Shown one piece after another: positions 27,814 through 62,201 of a stretch of DNA of 64,000 nucleotides. The position numbers were made by a program, and so were the translations under genes. The stretch is from Verrucomicrobiota bacterium (GTDB lineage: Bacteria > Verrucomicrobiota > Verrucomicrobiia > Limisphaerales > PALSA-1396), in contig JACQFP010000006.1 of the NCBI GenBank assembly GCA_016200005.1, positions 216,929 through 280,928 on the forward strand, given 5' to 3'. Below the pieces are notes generated by a model that worked only from the letters and a program-made list of their open reading frames with translations, had not been told where the DNA came from and ran no database searches. Positions within the stretch are counted from its first letter, which is position 1, and the number at the start of each line of letters is the position of its first letter.

Positions 27814-27842
27814 CGCGCGGCGCGCCCGAGGCGCGCCGCGCG
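27814..27842. repeat. perfect all-G/C 13-bp hairpin
   Basis: CGCGCGGCGCGCC-cga-GGCGCGCCGCGCG, located between the YciI-family stop and the DoxX start. No U-tract on either strand. Confidence 0.8.
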
Positions 27843-33309: not shown

Positions 33310-33388
33310 ACCCACCCCCAGCCCCTCCCAAGAGGGGAGCGGCGCACGGTGGATTGTTCCCCTCCCGGGAGGGGTCAGGGGTGGGTAG
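33310..33388. repeat. family B double-hairpin repeat, copy 2
   Basis: CCCACCCCCAGCCCCTCCCAAGAGGGGAG...TTCCCCTCCCGGGAGGGGTCAGGGGTGGG, between coxG-like and coxM-like genes. Confidence 0.8.
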
Positions 33389-33496
33389 GTTGGCAGCAAG
33401 ATCATGGGAGAGGGTGGCCGAAGGTCGGGTAAGGGGATCGCTATTTTTCTATCCGGAATTCTTTTATGGCAATCACTTCAAAATGTTAGGACCGTA

Positions 33497-37918: not shown

Positions 37919-37994
<76 letters not shown>

Positions 37995-38145: not shown

Positions 38146-40281
38146 ATGATTTGGATCGCCCCATCCGAAAAGGACACCGACAACGCCGCACTCGAAAAAC
38201 GCCTCTGGGACGCCGCTGACCAGTTCCGCGCCAACTCCGGCCTCAAGTCCCAGGAATACTCCGCGCCCGTCCTCGGCCTCATCTTCCTGCGCTTCGCCGA
38301 GGTTCGCTTCGCTGCCCAGCGCGCCAAGCTGGAGAAAGCCAGCGCCTCCGCCCGCCGTGGATCACGGCTGGATGAACCCGCCGCCTATCACGCCGAGGGC
38401 ATCCTCTATCTGCCCGCCGAAGCGCGGTTCGATTACCTGCTCAACCGCCCCGAAGCCGAGAACATCGGCGCGAAGGTCAATGCCGCCATGCGCGACATCG
38501 AGAAGCACAACCCGCAACTCGCTGGCGTCCTGCCCAAGACCTACAACCTCTTCACCAGCACCCTGCTCAAGGAACTACTCAAGAAAGTCTCCGAGATTCC
38601 CGCCTCGCTGGACTACGACGCCTTCGGGCGCATCTACGAATACTTCCTCGGCGAGTTCGCCATGAGCGAGGGTCAGGGCGGCGGCGAATTTTACACCCCC
38701 AGCAGCATCGTCCGCCTCCTCACCGAAGTGATTGAACCCTATCACGGGCGCATCCTCGACCCCGCGTGCGGTTCGGGCGGCATGTTCGTCTCCTCCGCGC
38801 GCTTCGTCTCCGAGCACAAGCGGCAAGCTGCCGCTGGCAAATCTTCTCCCTCGCCCCTCGGAGGGGAGAGGGCCGGGGTGAGGGGTGAAAACTATTCCGG
38901 TGATCCATCCAAAGAACTCTCCATCCACGGCGTCGAGAAAACCGACGAAACCGGCCGCCTCTGCCGCCTGAACCTCGCCGTCCACGGCCTCGAAGGCGAA
39001 ATCAAACACGGCGGCAACATCAACAGCTACTACGACGACCCGCACGACGCCACCGGCCGCTTCGACTTCGTCCTCGCCAACCCGCCGTTCAACGTCAACG
39101 CCGTGGACAAGGAGCGGTTGAAAGACATGGTCGGCCCAGGCCGCCGCTTCCCCTTCGGCCTGCCGCGCACTGACAACGCCAATTACCTCTGGATTCAACT
39201 CTTCTATTCTTCGTTGAAGAATGGGGAGGCCGGAACTTCCGGCGGGCGGGCCGGCTTCGTCATGGCCAACTCCGCCTCCGACGCCCGCTCCTCCGAACAG
39301 GAACTCCGCCGCCAGCTCATCGAAAGCCGCGCCGTGGACGTGATGGTCGCCGTCGGCCCGAACCTCTTCTACACCGTCACGCTCCCCTGCACCCTCTGGT
39401 TCTTCGACAAGGGCAAGGGCAAAAGTGGGCGCACCGACTCGGTGCTGTTCATTGATGCCCGCCACATCTACCGGCAGGTGGACCGCGCGCACCGCGAATG
39501 GACGCCCGCGCAGATTGGCTTCCTCGCCAACCTCGTCCGCCTCTATCGCGGCGAAGCCCTCGACTTCACATTGGGTGGCGAAGAAGCGAAGGCCAAAATC
39601 CTTGAAGTGTTCGCCACCCAACCCTCACCCCATCCCTCTCCCAACGGGAGAGGGGGCTACAAGTTTGCCGGATTGGTCGAACGTGGTCGGGAATTGCGAA
39701 AGAAGCAGACGCCAGCCGAGGCGGTCCTGTGGGAAGTGTTGCGTGACCGGCAGTTTGAAAATCTGAAATTCCGGCGGCAACATCAGGCGGGCGATTACCT
39801 CGTGGATTTCTTCTGCCACGAACACAGCCTCGTCGTGGAGGCTGACGGCGACGTTCACGATGCTGGCTATCAGAAGAAGCACGACAAGAAGCGCGATGCA
39901 TGGCTGCGAGGACAGGGGTTCACGGTCCTGCGTTTTCGCAACGAGGACATCTTGAACGATCTTGAATCGGTGCTCGGGAAAATCGCCGCCGCTCTCCCTT
40001 CTCCCGCTGGGAGAAGGGCCGGGGATGAGGGTGACTGCAAGGTCGCGTATCGCGATGTTGCAGGCTTATGCCGCGCCGCCACGCTCAAGGAAATCGAAGC
40101 GCAAGGCTGGTCGCTCAACCCCGGCCGCTACGTCGGCGTGGCCGCCGGCGAAGCCGTGAGCGACGAGGACTTCAAGGAACAACTCGAAACGCTGAACGAG
40201 GAACTCGAAACCCTCAACGCCCAAGCGCGCGACCTCGAACAAACCATCGCCGGCAACGTGGCGGAGATTCTGGAGGCGTGA
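38146..40281 (+). CDS. hsdM: Type I restriction-modification methyltransferase subunit HsdM, carrying two in-frame insertions
   Basis: HsdM_N ([13 protein letters not shown]), AdoMet motif [11 protein letters not shown], catalytic ANPPFN, C-terminal [25 protein letters not shown]. At 711 aa it is longer than I expect for HsdM. Inserts at 38844-38887 and 39622-40031. Confidence 0.9.
38844..38887. repeat. family A ([11 protein letters not shown]) hairpin element inserted in-frame in hsdM
   Basis: TTCTCCCTCGCCCCTCGGAGGGGAGAGGGCCGGGGTGAGGGGTG, with inner stem CCCTCGCCCCTC/GAGGGGAGAGGG plus the right outer arm GGGGTGAGGGG. Translated as [16 protein letters not shown] between motif I and the rest of the methylase core. 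Confidence 0.75.
39622..40031 (+). mobile_element. inverted-repeat-bounded DUF559 (Vsr-like endonuclease domain) cassette inserted in-frame in hsdM
   Basis: Left end CCCTCACCCCATCCCTCTCCC (39622-39642), right end GGGAGAAGGGCCGGGGATGAGGG (40009-40031), imperfectly inverted. The interior encodes [58 protein letters not shown]...[17 protein letters not shown]. Boundaries are +/- a few nt. Confidence 0.7.
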
Positions 40282-41512: not shown

Positions 41513-41516
<4 letters not shown>

Positions 41517-44062
41517 ATCCGAAATCCAGTCCGCTTGGTTCAATCTGGCGAAAGTGGGATTTGCACTTTCACACGCCGGCTTCTTACGACTACGGTCACA
41601 AAGGCGCGACCAACCAGGAAATCGTTGACGGGCTACTCAAGGCCGGCATTGAGGTCGTTGCCATCACCGACCATCACCGAATCGACACGGCACGAGTCTT
41701 AGAACTTCAGAAGCTGGGAGGCGAAGACCTTACGGTGCTGCCAGGGATCGAGTTGAGGTCAGAGTTGGGCGGCAGCGACTCGGTTCACTTCATCGGCATC
41801 TTTCCTGAAGACTCCGATCTAGTGGACCTGTGGACGAAGTTGTCCGGCAAGCTCAATATCACTGAAGCAGAGGTGGCCAAGCGCGGAGACGACACGATCT
41901 ATTGTCCGTTCGTCGAAACGGCAAATGTGATACACGAACTAGGCGGCTTGGTGACCGTGCATGCTGGAAAGAAATCGAATTCTATTGAGGGCCTCAAGAA
42001 CACCGACTACATCAAACAGATTATCAAAAAGGATTTGGTCAGGGAGTGCATTGACATCTACGAGGTCGGCGATGCCACCGACATCCAAAGTTACCTTGAA
42101 AAGGTGTTCCCGCACCTTGACCGGCCAATCCCGCTGATTCTGTGCTCGGACAATCATGACATTCGGGGCTATTCGACGAAGTGCCCGCTTTGGATTAAGG
42201 GAGACAAGTCATTCGAGGCGCTGCGACAAACACTTTTTGAGCCGTCGTGTCGCGTTGGTGTTACACCGGATAAACCGCTGAAGCCGCTGTTGCGGGTGGA
42301 CCGCGTCACCTTGGATTTTCCTGCTGAAACCGAGCTGGTTTCGGAGTTTAACGGGGAAGAACGTCGCGACGCATTCTGCTTCAGAGGAAAGGCTGCGGTG
42401 GTTTTTAGTCCGTATCTCACTTGTTTGATCGGGGGAAGAGGTTCAGGCAAGAGCACTCTGCTAAATCTGATTCATGAGAAACTTGAGCGGGGACAGAACA
42501 AGTTTTTCGCTGCAAATCATCTTGCCCCACAGCCAGACGCTTCAGTCGCCACCTGTGTTCAGATTGACGGTGACACCGCAAAGAAGGTTGTCGAGTTCTT
42601 GCAGCAAAACGAAATCGAGGGCTTCGCCACCGACCCCTGGCGTTTCACGGAAGCCGTCTTTTCTAGGCTCGTGAAGCGGGACGAGGAGGGCAAACTCAAC
42701 GCGGTTAACGCTGAGTTGGCCGCCGCGTTATCCGCAACGGCTGAACAGGCGAAGCGATTACAGGAGCACACCGATTTGGTGTCACGGCTCGCAGATGCGG
42801 AGAAGGAATTAGTATCCAAGAAGGCGTTGATTGCCTCGTTCCAGAACGAAGAATACAAACGCATCAACGACGAGATGGGTAAGTTAAGCCAAGAACTCCA
42901 AGGCTTGCGAATCTGGAGGGAACGGCTTGAAGCGCTGAAGAACGACCTCAACAATTTGCCGGAACATCACAGCCATCCGATATCCGAGAACCCTAACGGC
43001 TACGAAAAAGAATTTCTGCGAATACTTGGTGTCGTCCAAGGCGCTGTGCAGCCACCTCAACCAAGTGCGGAGATGGCTGCGGCTGCCAGTCGAGAGGCTG
43101 ACTTAAACGGCCAAGTTGCCGCACTGAAAGAAAAACTCGACGCATTCCTCAGAGGGCGAGGGCTTTCGCAGGAGAATCTTGCCGATGTGGGAAAGGCAAA
43201 TCAAAGAGCTGCGCAACTGGAGCATGAGCTGCCCTCACTCAAGGCAAGAACCCAAACACTCGCCGCGCAAATCTCGGCCTTCCGGGCGCGGCGAGACTTG
43301 CCAGAAAAATACTCTGGCGCGGTCCAAGCGCTCCTCGCTCCGATTAACAATGCACTCAGGAATCTGAGCAAAGAAGTTAAACAAATCGAGTTGCACTATG
43401 AATTTGATTACGGCGCGTGTCGCCAGACGCTGATTGAACACATTCAGGATGTGTTGGGCGATGCAGGCGTCCGGATTGACCACGTCGAAAGCATGTTGCA
43501 GGACGTTGACCTGTTCCGTTTGGACAGCCGAGAAAAGTTCCTTCAAAGAATCTCGGACGCACACAAAACCGGTAAGGCCATCCGCGAGTGCTACTCGATT
43601 CCGCTGCGGTTCGACCTTCTGCGCATCGAAGTTGAACGGCAGTTGCTCGAAGTTGGAGGCTTTGGCCGTTTCCGAGTGCTTTATGACAAGAAGCCAGTCG
43701 AAAACACATCGTTCGGCCAGCGATGCACCGCGGCCATCGTCGTGCTGTTGATACTAGGGAATACACCAATCGTGATCGACGAGCCAGAAGCGCACTTGGA
43801 CAGCGCGCTCATTGCGAATTACCTGGTCGAGCTCGTGAAGAGCAAGAAGGTCAACCGCCAGATTATTTTCGCGACCCACAATGCAAACTTCGTGGTCAAC
43901 GGTGACGCCGAGCTGATCCACATTTTGGAGATGGGGGACGACAAGCAATCCAAAATCGTGAGCACAACTATCGAAGACCTGTCCCACCGCTCCGAGTTGC
44001 TTCGCCTCGAAGGTGGGCCAGAAGCTTTCTTGAAGCGCGAACACCGTTACGGCATCGCATAG
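41513..44062 (+). CDS. PHP-domain phosphoesterase fused to a Rad50/SMC-like ABC ATPase with coiled-coil insert (candidate R-M-embedded defence effector)
   Basis: PHP ligand motifs DLHFHT, ITDHH, GIE, VHAG, SDNHD in aa 1-250. Walker A GGRGSGKST (aa 307-315), ~230 aa of helical/heptad-like sequence, SFGQR, Walker B IVIDEPEAHLD (aa 753-763), FATHN. The ATG overlaps the hsdS stop (ATGA). Confidence 0.8.
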
Positions 44063-44072
44063 AACCCAAGCC

Positions 44073-44936
44073 ATGCCCCACGCCTACACCGAAGACCAGC
44101 TTGTCGAGCAGCCCGCCATCGGGTTGTTCGCGGAGCTTGGCTGGGCCGTGGCAGTGCCACCTCCCAATGCCGGCGTGGCCGGCGAGCCGCGTGACGCCGG
44201 GTTGCTCGGGCGCGAGACGAAGGGCGAGGTGGTATTGGTGTCCCGGTTGCGCGCGGCGTTGGAGCGGCTCAATCCCGCGCTGCCGCCCGAGGCCATCACC
44301 GCCGCCGTGGACGAATTGACCCGCGACCGTTCGGCCATGAGCCTGGAGGCGGCGAATCGCGAGGTGTATCGGTTGTTGAAGGAGGGGATTCCCGTTTCCG
44401 TGCTGGATGCGGAATCGACACCTCACCCCGGCCCTCTCCCCGGTCGAGGCGGAGAGGGTGCGAGCCGCACGGGAAATCACGGTGCGCTGGGGACAGCACG
44501 CCCTACCAAGGGAGGTCAGACCAGTGTCCGGGTGCGGGTGATTGATTGGGAGCATCCGGCGAACAATGGTTTCCTGCTGGTCAGCCAGTTCAGCGTCACG
44601 GGCGCGCTCTACACCTGCCGCCCGGATTTGGTCGGCTTCGTCAACGGCCTGCCGCTGGTGGTCATCGAGCTGAAGCAGCCCGGCGTGCCAGCGCGTGCGG
44701 CGTTCGACGAGAACCTGACGCACTACAAGGCGGAAATACCGCAGCTCTTTTGGTTCAACGCGCTGCTCATCGCCTCGAACGGCACGGAGAGTTGTCAGTC
44801 ACCTGTCTTCAAGCGGCGATTCTTTGGCTCGCCAAGAAACCCGACCGGCCATCCACTGTGCCTTCTTCCACTACGCACGCCGGAATCGCGTTGCGATTTT
44901 GCAGAACTCGATGCGCGATTTCTTCCATCGTCGTGA
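44073..44936 (+). pseudogene. hsdR: truncated Type I restriction subunit HsdR (N-terminal nuclease domain only)
   Basis: MPHAYTEDQLVEQPAIGLFAELGW..., with the PD-(D/E)xK core RPDLVGFVNGLPLVVIELK. Family-like sequence stops after ...LLIASNGTES (aa 240, nt ~44792). The remaining 47 codons are antisense to arnD. No helicase motifs were seen anywhere downstream. Confidence 0.8.
44421..44464. repeat. family A hairpin element inserted in-frame in hsdR remnant
   Basis: CCTCACCCCGGCCCTCTCCCCGGTCGAGGCGGAGAGGGTGCGAG, with left outer arm, inner stem CCCTCTCC/GGAGAGGG and a degenerate right arm. Translated as PHPGPLPGRGGEGAS. Confidence 0.7.
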
Positions 44937-53058: not shown

Positions 53059-54702
53059 TTAGCCAAGGTCTGTTCGGCTGCCGTCAACGGCATCGAGGCT
53101 TATCCGATCGAAGTCTTTCGTCGCGTGGCGTCGGAGCGCGTCCTTGACGGCTTCCGTGCCACCGGTCGTTTTTTCGGGAAGCTTCGCGCCCGCTTTGAGC
53201 AGCAACTCGACGGTCGTGGCGTAGTCTCCCGTCCGGCAATACCAGCCATGTTCCGAGCCGTGAATGGCCCATCCCAGTGGCGTGCTATGGAAGTCTGCAT
53301 CGGTCAGTTCGAGCGGCGGTTCGTAACGAAGGATCTCGCGGGTCAACTCCGCATTCCCATGAAACGCCGCCCAGTGCAGCGGCGTGGCACGATGCTGGCC
53401 GAGCGAGTCCACGGGCAGACCCGCAGTGAGCATCACGCGGACGGCGGCGAGATTGTTGTTCCGCGCAGCGTGAGCGACCTGGCGATGATAGGCGTCGGAC
53501 AAATCGGCGACGAGGTCAGGCTCTTGGGCGAGCAAGGATTTCACCGCGGTTTCGTCAACGGCCCAGCAAGCAGCAAGCAGTCTCACGTCGGCGGGACTGC
53601 GTTCCATCAATAAACGGAAGACGTCGTCGTGACCGAATTGCTTGGCGACGTCGTGCGGCGACACGTACCAACCGAGCGCCCATTGATAAATCGTTCCACC
53701 GGCCTTTTTGTTGATCATGGGAAAATATTCGTCGCTCACGCGCACGTGAATGCAGCCGGGATCGGAGTCCAGATGTTTGCGAACGAGGTCCGCGTCGCCC
53801 AGCGCTGCGGCCATGAGGATGTCGGTCTTGCAGCCGCGCTGAATCAAGTAACGCGCGATCTCCTGACGGTCGCCCACCATCCATTGTGCCGGTGTGGAAT
53901 CGTGGTCGATGTCGCGGGCGTCAATGTCTGCGCCGTGATCCAGCAACCACTTCGCGATTTCGACCGTGCTGGCAAAATGTAGCGGCGTCTGTCCATCGCC
54001 GCCTCGCGCATTCACTAGCGACGGATTGGCCGAGATGAGTTCACGGACCTTCTCGTTCATGCCGAGGCGTGCGGCGGCGTGCACATCCACGACGGCGCCG
54101 CGCTGTATTGCGTACGCGGCCAGGTCAGGTTTCGCGCCGTGCAAGAGCCCGAATCCGCCGGCCCACCACCGGCTCTTCGCATTGATGTCCGCCCCGGCTT
54201 CGAGCAACACGTCCAGCATCTCGCGGCTGCGCACCTGCGTGATCACCGGCGCGTCGAAGGCCGCCACGGGTTCGTTGATCTTTGCCTTCATCGCGGGAAA
54301 ACGTTCGAGTAACTGGCGGAACATGGTTGCGTCATTGTCTATAAATGCTTTCTTGAACAGTTCAACCGGGTCGTCTGCTTTGAGTGTGATGGAGTCCACA
54401 TGCTCCTTGAGCTTCATCCAACTGGCGAAACCGTATTCGCGAGCGATGACAAGTTGCGCGTCGTGAAGGCGGAAGCCTTTTCCCCTCACCCGACCTTCGG
54501 TCACCCTCTCCCCATCCGATGGGGAGAGGGATGGGGTGAGGGGCGTTCTTGGTGATTTGACCGACGAACCACCAAAGTCGGGATGAAGCTCGCGCATGCG
54601 ATTCACCGCCGCCGGCTCGCCGGCGAGATATTTTTTGAGGAGGTCTTTGGCCTGGTTCTTGAGTTGTTCAAGATTGGGCCGCGAAGGAAGCGACTTTGAC
54701 AT
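53059..54702 (-). CDS. ankyrin repeat protein
   Basis: Multiple TPLHxA/G..G...vv..LL..GAD repeats (e.g. GQTPLHFASTVEIAKWLLDHGADIDA, ATPLHWAAFHGNAELTREIL). Contains an in-frame family A repeat near the N-terminus. Confidence 0.85.
   Translation of the reverse strand: MSKSLPSRPNLEQLKNQAKDLLKKYLAGEPAAVNRMRELHPDFGGSSVKSPRTPLTPSLSPSDGERVTEGRVRGKGFRLHDAQLVIAREYGFASWMKLKEHVDSITLKADDPVELFKKAFIDNDATMFRQLLERFPAMKAKINEPVAAFDAPVITQVRSREMLDVLLEAGADINAKSRWWAGGFGLLHGAKPDLAAYAIQRGAVVDVHAAARLGMNEKVRELISANPSLVNARGGDGQTPLHFASTVEIAKWLLDHGADIDARDIDHDSTPAQWMVGDRQEIARYLIQRGCKTDILMAAALGDADLVRKHLDSDPGCIHVRVSDEYFPMINKKAGGTIYQWALGWYVSPHDVAKQFGHDDVFRLLMERSPADVRLLAACWAVDETAVKSLLAQEPDLVADLSDAYHRQVAHAARNNNLAAVRVMLTAGLPVDSLGQHRATPLHWAAFHGNAELTREILRYEPPLELTDADFHSTPLGWAIHGSEHGWYCRTGDYATTVELLLKAGAKLPEKTTGGTEAVKDALRRHATKDFDRISLDAVDGSRTDLG
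54482..54543. repeat. complete two-armed family A element inserted in-frame in the ankyrin gene
   Basis: CCCCTCACCC-gaccttcggtca-CCCTCTCCCCA-tccga-TGGGGAGAGGG-a-TGGGGTGAGGGG, with nested outer and inner inverted repeats. Translated on the minus strand as TPLTPSLSPSDGERVTEGRVRGKG. Confidence 0.8.
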
Positions 54703-61929: not shown

Positions 61930-62035
61930 AACCCGCCGCCAGCCCCTCCCAGGTGGGGAGCGGCCCGCCTGCTTCGCGGTGGGCAGGCGCACGGTCGCTT
62001 GCTTCCCTCTTGGGAGGGGTCAGGGGTGGGTTGGG
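61930..62035. repeat. family B double-hairpin repeat, copy 4 (with extended flanks 61868-62105)
   Basis: CCGCCGCCAGCCCCTCCCAGGTGGGGAG...TTCCCTCTTGGGAGGGGTCAGGGGTGGG. Flanked on both sides by GAGAATTCCCCGAAAG motifs. Confidence 0.75.
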
Positions 62036-62201
62036 TTGGCAGCAGGTCCATGGGGAGCGCCGGGGTGAGAATTCCCCGAAAGATTCGCGCATTGAACCCC
62101 TGAACTGCCCGGACAAATTTATGTTGCATATGCAACATGAAACTGTCCGAGCGGTTCATGGAGAGGGGGCGTTCAACACCGTCGTTCCGGCTCGGACCTG
62201 A

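Follow-up and report, generated by a model that had tools for sequence, protein, structure and literature searches.

Rickettsia palindromic elements (RPEs) are palindromic repeats which lie in frame in unrelated genes, add an extra peptide at permissive places of the encoded proteins and also occur between genes (Ogata et al. 2000, as recounted in PMC10969869 and PMC3733652). We analyzed an element with similar properties in a stretch of 64,000 nucleotides from a Verrucomicrobiota bacterium (GenBank assembly GCA_016200005.1, contig JACQFP010000006.1, positions 216,929 to 280,928), which we call the window. The element is a palindrome of 62 bases at positions 54482-54543. It is translated within an ankyrin-repeat protein, and arms of the same family bracket a DUF559 nuclease domain inside hsdM of the same window. 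The reading we prefer, with a probability of roughly 0.55, is that this nuclease cassette and the short repeats form one system that spreads by break and copy, and that the ankyrin copy is an old, non-autonomous, translated palindromic repeat belonging to it.

As far as the accounts in these papers go, RPEs are approximately 100-150 bp long, A+T-rich, restricted to Rickettsia and without a coding member. The element studied here has 62 bp, is C/G-rich, is present in Verrucomicrobiota and far beyond, and has arms that bracket a nuclease gene; the two are set apart by description and not by direct comparison of sequences. A second related group comprises repetitive extragenic palindromic sequences, the hairpin-forming doublets made of them (REP/REPIN) and REPtrons. 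Like these, our family consists of short G+C-rich imperfect palindromes, present in high copy number as singlets and inverted doublets (PMC3733652). Some of the intragenic GTAG REPs of Opitutus terrae encode 20-30 residues, in which they resemble our element, and in REPtrons the repeats bracket a single protein-coding gene, which is a REP-associated tyrosine transposase (RAYT) there and DUF559 here (PMC3733652). We found many dispersed imperfect palindromes, as in REP/REPIN, but neither a GTAG or CGTC tag nor a mainly extragenic location. Further, the associated protein is a PD-(D/E)XK nuclease instead of an HUH tyrosine transposase, the sequence of the arms has been conserved between phyla, and a large share of the copies lies inside open reading frames (ORFs).

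Transposable elements of the miniature inverted-repeat type (MITEs) and homing endonucleases offer two further comparisons. As in a MITE, the cargo-less element shares terminal inverted repeats with a longer coding element (21-nt identity with the left arm of the cassette), and at one orthologous site we observed a form that looks like an internal deletion. Unlike in MITEs, we found no duplication of the target site, no known transposase is encoded by the partner (the cassette cargo contained only the DUF559/Vsr-like PD-(D/E)XK domain and no transposase domain), and 62 bp is at or below the usual size range. The companion cassette resembles the Vsr-like/EDxHD homing endonucleases such as I-Bth0305I (PMC3239194, PMC2677866, PMC3424549) in that a small gene for a Vsr-fold nuclease is inserted in conserved genes and gives presence/absence alleles. 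The known enzymes reside in group I introns or inteins or are free-standing, whereas the cassette is an internal domain of its host protein, has no splicing element and lies between hairpin repeats which occur on their own as well. The ankyrin element differs from such a cassette in having no cargo and encoding no nuclease.

The ankyrin gene and its element consist of the following parts:

53059-54702, minus strand: ORF of the host gene; its product, an ankyrin-repeat protein of 547 aa, is identical to one recorded at NCBI for a Verrucomicrobia metagenome-assembled genome.
54475-54546, minus strand: codons 53-76 of this gene, read in the ORF translation as TPLTPSLSPSDGERVTEGRVRGKG.
54482-54543, minus strand: the complete short element, 62 bases, recognized by its sequence, arm pairing, folding and near-identical copies in loci L161, L192, L208, L225 and L262.
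54482-54491: outer arm, plus strand CCCCTCACCC, 10/10 complementary with 54534-54543.
54534-54543: outer arm, plus strand GGGTGAGGGG, 10/10 complementary with 54482-54491.
54504-54530: inner hairpin CCCTCTCCCCATC c GATGGGGAGAGGG, arms 54504-54516 and 54518-54530, 13/13 complementary with 1 nt between them.
54492-54503: mini-hairpin GACC-TTC-GGTC(A) (hairpin proper 54492-54502), paired in the minimum free energy structure.

The position, the sequence and the perfect pairing of the outer and inner arms agree with the first-pass annotation of this DNA, which had been made from the letters alone. The mini-hairpin was absent from it; this is the third hairpin of the 62-mer and lies between one outer arm and the inner hairpin. 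On the sense strand of the host gene the element reads as outer left arm CCCCTCACCCC, AT, hairpin, TGACCGAAGGTC and outer right arm GGGTGAGGGG. The first-pass annotation had described two abutting arms without cargo. There is indeed no cargo, but the outer 10-mers enclose one hairpin and the mini-hairpin and not a pair of abutting cassette arms. True two-hairpin forms without cargo exist elsewhere, namely at sites in HsdM orthologues and in Sinorhizobium meliloti.

The pattern of the inner hairpin occurs in the window as the exact copy at 54504-54530 and as one related copy with three mismatches; 0.00 matches were expected from 100 shuffles. Folding, which had been proposed as a check, gave -48.6 kcal/mol for RNA (z = -4.6) and -27.8 kcal/mol for DNA (z = -5.3), and every shuffle was weaker in both cases. 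Five of the six reading frames of the 62-mer are open, the sole closed frame being GGG-TGA-GGG. A scan of the window with Rfam 15 at the gathering score returned two tRNAs only and no family on the element. The G-rich half at 54518-54543 of the plus strand (GGGGAGAGGGATGGGGTGAGGGG) has four G-runs with loops of 2-3 nt and fits the canonical G-quadruplex motif; an i-motif could form on the opposite strand. This G-quadruplex-like property of four G-runs is shared by the right arms of DUF559 cassettes.

We compared the host protein with 120 orthologues of 67-83% identity. The translated insert TPLTPSLSPSDGERVTEGRVRGKG is flanked by ...GGSSVKSPR and FRLHDAQLVIAREYGFASW, and the motif which follows it, L(H/S)DAQLVIAREYGF(A)SW, is nearly invariant across the orthologues. 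Most of them have a linker of 5-15 aa between ...HP(D/R)... and this motif. The insert or its remnants were present in approximately 10 of the 120, including P0002-5, P0016, P0023, P0024, P0051 and P0071. DNA was aligned for seven orthologous loci (L001-L007). All 62 bases are missing from L007 (protein P0011), the single empty-site orthologue compared at the DNA level, which bears out the proposal that the element is an insertion. In L001-L006 the element has an identical 3' junction and identical orientation, with 6-18 differences from the window copy. Pairing in these loci was 1-9 of 10 for the outer arms and 7-12 of 12 for the inner ones, compared with 10/10 and 12/12 in the window. Inner-stem pairs were lost in four and outer-arm pairs in all six of these copies, so that the window copy was the sole perfectly paired one among those compared. 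Relative to the consensus of the orthologue copies, it has an unpaired A/G difference, and in the mini-hairpin both bases of a pair are changed (G>A / C>T). The copy of P0024 maintains 12/12 inner pairs via a T>G / A>C double change.

Because decayed copies occupy the same junction in orthologues of 71-83% protein identity, these alignments indicate that the insertion in the ankyrin gene is old and not recent. The first-pass annotation had regarded a peptide kept in orthologues that have lost the palindrome as an argument against its interpretation; we observed this in part, in the form of a decay series in the same orthologues. When the remainder of the protein was used for a neighbour-joining tree, insert-bearing orthologues occupied at least four places, and the empty-site proteins P0011 and P0020 nested among P0001-4. 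It is possible that this patchy distribution reflects one ancient insertion followed by several precise losses, repeated insertion at one nucleotide, or recombination between lineages.

In an AlphaFold2 model based on an alignment of 48 orthologues, residues 45-73 had a predicted local distance difference test (pLDDT) below 50, showed no secondary structure and lay between helices 30-39 and 79-89. According to this model the insert sits in a variable linker that is predicted to be disordered. Repeat-like inserts of unrelated sequence, such as LLSPSLSSAQSGGEGGRRPGE and RSTNVLHGETPLKPAAEDGRAPF, occupy the same linker in P0007, P0010, P0014 and P0042. Since other orthologues carry different inserts there, we consider the linker a permissive spot, and several repeat families appear to use it as a permissive loop. 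A Pfam scan of the host protein found ankyrin families only. An intein was considered as the nature of the 24-residue insert and rejected, as the insert is too short, has no Cys/Ser/Thr...His-Asn junctions and contains no splicing domain by Pfam.

The element belongs to a very large dispersed family, as had been suggested. Near base-for-base matches to the 62-mer were found in the metagenome contigs L161, L192, L208, L225 and L262, with unrelated flanks. In L161 and L262 the element is itself flanked by a further inverted repeat (ATGAACCG.. / ..GGTTCAT), which is either an extra outer layer or a sign of orthologous sites in related genomes. The family is built of three modules: the 10-mer CCCTCACCCC / GGGGTGAGGG, the CCCTCTCCC...GGGAGAGGG hairpin and an optional GRCC-GAA-GGYC mini-hairpin. 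The left-arm pattern matched at least 120 stretches in viral contigs, and the right-arm pattern (3' stem of the hairpin, mini-hairpin and outer 10-mer) matched at least 120 stretches in metagenomes. Among the metagenome matches listed (n = 125), 96 had the hairpin without the outer left 10-mer, and two arms were present in 13. At its varying pair, the mini-hairpin of these listed matches had G-C in 116, G-T in 7, A-T in 2 and A-C in none, that is, the pair covaried. The apex of the hairpin had 64 different sequences in 106 copies and was still self-complementary (1.39 extra pairs, compared with 0.30 ± 0.06 in shuffled sequences).

Copies of the element were present in unrelated genes and in intergenic DNA, and all five open frames were represented in long ORFs among the metagenome matches listed. 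Stop-free stretches of at least 300 aa contained 42% of the sampled copies and 66% of random positions in the same contigs. The family is therefore somewhat depleted from genes, but far from extragenic. A search of proteomes for the peptide had been recommended, and we performed it with the doubled 24-residue peptide. It returned 59 short ORFs (P0241-P0299) but missed the ankyrin protein of the window itself, hence it is not a census. The proteins returned are 'hypothetical proteins' of public catalogues, 40-83 aa long and without Pfam domains, and are essentially translated repeat; such repeat-only proteins are probably gene-calling artefacts over intergenic copies.

Relatives were also found in cultured bacteria. 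Repeats on S. meliloti megaplasmids share 85% identity with the window element across 55 nt and form intergenic mosaics of approximately 110 bp with the layout 10-mer, hairpin, spacer, hairpin, mini-hairpin and 10-mer. The S. meliloti repeat matches many sites in plasmids of Sinorhizobium, Rhizobium, Ensifer and Shinella. These relatives may be the Rhizobium-specific intergenic mosaic elements (RIME) or Sm-repeats of S. meliloti (Osteras et al. 1995, mentioned in PMC2573895), which is a tentative lead. In that mention the repeats are described as intergenic and Rhizobium-specific, whereas our family is also intragenic and crosses phyla.

The remaining copies in the window, together with the nuclease domain which two of them bracket, are as follows:

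38146-40281, plus strand: hsdM, methylase of a type I restriction-modification (R-M) system, 711 aa, host of the DUF559 cassette and of a solo arm.
38848-38886, plus strand: solo arm in hsdM (hairpin, CC and GGGGTGAGGGG), translated as 13 residues of HsdM.
39621-39654, plus strand: left arm of the DUF559 cassette in hsdM, (A)CCCTCACCCC AT CCCTCTCCC aac GGGAGAGGG.
39658-39990, plus strand: DUF559 (Vsr-like PD-(D/E)XK) nuclease domain, in frame within HsdM (PF04480, E = 1.7e-35).
39996-40031, plus strand: right arm of the DUF559 cassette, CCCTTCTCCC gct GGGAGAAGGG CC GGGGATGAGGG, the inverted counterpart of the left arm.
44419-44475, plus strand: decayed copy in the N-terminal part of hsdR, translated as 16 residues.
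33404-33436, plus strand: intergenic partial copy ATGGGAGAGGG TGGCCGAAGGTC GGGTAAGGGG, made of half a hairpin, mini-hairpin and outer arm.

Four of the six copies in the window lie inside genes. Those in hsdM and hsdR are translated in frames other than that of the ankyrin copy, in agreement with the proposed translation-compatible insertion into unrelated genes. The first 21 nt of the left cassette arm after the A are identical to the ankyrin element. Pfam detected in HsdM only N6_Mtase, HsdM_N and DUF559, with no splicing or transposase domain; an intein was rejected for the embedded DUF559 as well, since no splicing domain was found. The closest solved relative of the DUF559 domain is PDB 3HRL (1e-18), an 'endonuclease-like protein' of unknown function. 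The ratio of nonsynonymous to synonymous substitution rates (dN/dS) between Verrucomicrobia copies of DUF559 was 0.08-0.25, with synonymous sites saturated. This purifying selection argues that the nuclease domain is functional also in its place within HsdM.

When we scanned genomes with the DUF559 domain, 23 loci were obtained, and all the DNA compared contained 29 DUF559 copies. C/T-rich hairpins were present within 130 nt on both sides of 15 of the 29 copies and on one side of roughly 8 more. In a separate control with viral DUF559 loci, 1.3% of 150-nt windows held a C/T-rich hairpin. Arm-flanked DUF559 was found in Verrucomicrobiota, Leptospiraceae, Bacteroidia, Longimicrobiaceae, Balneolaceae, Alphaproteobacteria and others. 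The stem of the arm varies with the taxon (CCCTCTCCC, CCCTCCCCC or TCCCCCT), and the 10-mer CTCACCCC recurs as far as Algoriphagus and Peregrinibacteria. The cultured strains with such genes are Azospirillum lipoferum 4B (AZOLI_RS31515), S. meliloti Ak57 (LZK74_28985) and Synechocystis sp. B12 (NON20_25155). In the literature on DUF559 and Vsr-like nucleases we found no description of hairpin-flanked DUF559 cassettes, and a literature text search for GGGAGAGGG returned irrelevant primer matches only. The tie between the family and the nuclease appears undescribed so far. Genes for a 'DUF559 domain-containing protein' are enriched among predicted targets of programmed inversion (odds ratio 14, PMC9881135), and the inverted hairpin arms which flank them might explain this enrichment.

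We further compared HsdM orthologues of 69-90% identity and observed three classes: proteins of 539 aa without an insert, which have neither the cassette nor the solo arm, proteins of 550-640 aa with short arm-derived peptides, and proteins of 676-789 aa with DUF559. The inserts occupy at least four hot spots, each of which can be empty, hold short elements of several subtypes or hold DUF559 with arms; the hot spots host cassettes of at least two DUF559 subfamilies. DUF559 was seen at three or more different sites across orthologous hsdM genes. The site of the window has the order outer left arm, hairpin, GGC, [DUF559], hairpin, CC and outer right arm. At this very site P0147 and P0198 have both arms with only 12 nt (GCGGCGGCGAAT) between them, and P0159 is empty. 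The 12 nt read A-A-A-N, compared with ...K-I-A-A-A at the end of the cargo, that is, they match the last cargo codons. Spacers of 4-5 residues (S/G-x-A-A-E/N) recur in two-hairpin forms at other HsdM sites. The match to the cargo end together with the recurring spacers suggests that the cargo-less two-hairpin form is an internal deletion derivative which then spread. In hsdR, the exact position of the short remnant in the window is taken up by a DUF559 cassette in locus L009 (16206-). The relation between cargo-bearing and cargo-less forms that the first-pass annotation had proposed is thus found at both genes. The label 'autonomous' which it gave to the cargo-bearing form is unsupported, as DUF559 is a hydrolytic nuclease and not a known transposase.

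The clearest pair of filled and empty sites was found on pSymB of S. meliloti. Comparison of strains BL225C and R14 (L354 1194-1312 and L361) revealed a clean gap of 119 bp in R14, where a two-hairpin relative is present in BL225C. The indel lies between a gene for an FAD-binding oxidoreductase and a gene for a RES-domain protein, its flanks are approximately 95% identical, and there is no target-site duplication. None was visible either at the ankyrin or hsdM junctions, where divergence limits the view.

According to our preferred reading, the 62-bp sequence would be of non-coding origin, a non-autonomous palindromic repeat of the REP/MITE/RPE kind. Long ago it entered the linker between two N-terminal helical segments of the ankyrin-repeat protein; this insertion and its tolerance in frame are shown by the comparisons above. 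It is tolerated because its composition of pyrimidine runs and purine runs leaves 5/6 frames free of stops and because the net insert preserves the frame, and it is read as a Pro/Ser/Gly/Arg-rich loop of 24 residues. The cassette would be the coding member of the family and the short elements its cargo-less relatives, at least some of them produced by internal deletion. Spread would begin when the nuclease causes a break in or close to the arms, and another copy would then serve as the template, in a homing-like process that leaves no target-site duplication. We infer that DUF559 may recognize the arms and drive this spread. We prefer DUF559 as the driver because the indel unit consists of arms and DUF559 together, because the arms next to DUF559 are conserved across phyla, because 2.2 Mb of loci showed no other compact cargo between inverted arms, and because Vsr/DUF559 relatives include a proven homing endonuclease, I-Bth0305I (PMC3239194, PMC3424549).

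Several observations weigh against this reading. To explain the patchy insert on the ankyrin tree, the element must either have been lost precisely several times or have entered one nucleotide position repeatedly. Two topologies of the arms exist, with the outer 10-mer distal or proximal to the cargo, and this does not fit a simple model of terminal inverted repeats (TIRs). In a search with a 7-sequence profile, 50 of 53 phage-borne DUF559 genes had no such hairpins, so the link to the arms holds for a subset of DUF559 only. Short and solo elements far outnumber cassettes: there were just 4 DUF559 copies in approximately 1.6 Mb of arm-selected loci, and 88 of the 92 left-arm matches analyzed in viral contigs were solo arms. 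To our knowledge, a PD-(D/E)XK hydrolase alone is incapable of strand transfer. The movement of the Verrucomicrobia copies is deduced from sequence comparison, and the surveys covered individual loci and contigs. Finally, the TIRs which flank RAYT-like tyrosine transposases (TIRYT genes) are reported to share the motif GGGGWSAS, and GGGGTGAG fits it (PMC3733652).

This last point also speaks for an alternative in which the repeats are of the REP/REPIN or TIR type and are mobilized in trans by a single-copy HUH tyrosine transposase (RAYT/TIRYT), with DUF559 as a frequent neighbour, a passenger or a landing site. High copy number, an imperfect palindrome that is short and G+C-rich, occurrence as singlets and inverted doublets and the lack of a target-site duplication are all typical of REP/REPIN, and intragenic REPs have already been reported, being most abundant in the verrucomicrobium O. 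terrae (PMC3733652). However, the 62-mer has neither GTAG/CTAC nor CGTC/GACG tags, and none of the arm sequences is present in the supplements of PMC3733652. Clustering of arm-adjacent ORFs gave phage structural genes and spurious GC-rich ORFs, with no recurrent transposase family adjoining the arms, and we found no RAYT-like ORF in the 2.2 Mb of loci, which is a weak test, as the YafM query was approximate. Further, at hsdM and hsdR the arms and DUF559 come and go as one unit, and the conservation of arms beside DUF559 across phyla is at odds with REP sequences, which usually differ between species. Mobilization by such a transposase is the main rival reading and seems unlikely to us.

We hold it similarly improbable that the short elements are landing pads of independent origin, recognized by the DUF559 nuclease, into which its gene is copied by homing, and that they do not derive from the cassette. 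The great excess of solo and short elements over cassettes speaks for this reading, as do the hot spots that hold several subtypes of short elements as well as cassettes of at least two DUF559 subfamilies, and DUF559 relatives are homing endonucleases (PMC3239194). On the other hand, the cargo-less hsdM allele keeps 12 nt matching the 3' end of the cargo (AAA-N and ...KIAAA), and the S/G-x-A-A-E/N spacers at other sites look like an internal deletion product that spread. Independent landing pads also leave unexplained how the pads reach new sites.

A function for the host, be it as a flexible protein linker, a translation-tuning mRNA hairpin or a G-quadruplex / i-motif DNA signal, is very improbable. 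The window copy is perfectly paired despite the old insertion, the G-rich arm has four G-runs, and there are compensatory changes, namely A-T for G-C in the mini-hairpin of the window and T>G / A>C in the inner stem of P0024. These paired changes are equally explained by gene conversion from family members with the same variants (L251, L255). Moreover, most orthologues have no insert and others have unrelated repeats there, pairs were lost from the inner stem in 4/6 and from the outer arms in 6/6 orthologue copies, the element is also found elsewhere, between genes and inside unrelated ones, in all open frames, and the AlphaFold2 model places the peptide in a loop of low confidence. That the palindrome arose by chance, or that the linker is ancestral and of low complexity without any insertion, can be dismissed: all orthologues do have a variable linker of biased composition, but the shuffles gave zero chance matches, the empty site is seen at the DNA level and near-identical 62-mers exist in unrelated contigs.

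Some neighbouring features of the window were observed in addition. A second intergenic repeat family has two copies, at 33358-33385 and 62004-62045, of the form CCC(C)TCCCGGGAGGGG-TCAGGGGTGGGT(A/T)GG(G)TTGGCAGCA; the first of these runs directly into the partial copy of our family. At 27814-27842 there is a perfect 13-bp G+C palindrome, CGCGCGGCGCGCC cga GGCGCGCCGCGCG, unrelated to the family. A tRNA gene at 37919-37991 lies approximately 150 bp upstream of hsdM, and the type I R-M locus may be an island integrated beside this tRNA. Between hsdS and hsdR there is an 849-aa ORF (41513-44062) with a His-rich N-terminal part, a GxxGxGKS P-loop motif and long coiled-looking stretches. The hsdR of the window (44073-44936) diverges from its orthologues after approximately residue 240 and ends at 287 aa. 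Its product thus appears to be a truncated restriction subunit, and the R-M system would probably act as a methylase only.

In summary, the first interpretation of this locus was largely right and over-reached on the word 'autonomous'. The ankyrin copy alone is a translated palindromic repeat, of a kind already known from Rickettsia and from intragenic REPs. For annotation this means that the 24 residues are not a conserved motif and that many short 'hypothetical proteins' are this repeat. The wider finding is that an abundant, cross-phylum repeat family appears to be tied to the uncharacterized nuclease family DUF559. We suggest, tentatively, that the hairpin repeats and DUF559 could together be an undescribed class of bacterial mobile elements, a nuclease counterpart of the RAYT/REP REPtron. 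Such a class would be cross-phylum and free of introns and inteins, it would insert in frame, notably in type I R-M subunits, with a translated nuclease domain under purifying selection, and it would shed translated cargo-less palindromes. Since arm-flanked DUF559 is present in S. meliloti, Azospirillum and Synechocystis, the idea is directly testable in the laboratory. If the nuclease recognizes the arms, DUF559 would gain a function, a second class of enzymes would join the REP/RAYT paradigm, and there would be an explanation for one recurring origin of loops and domains inserted in bacterial proteins.

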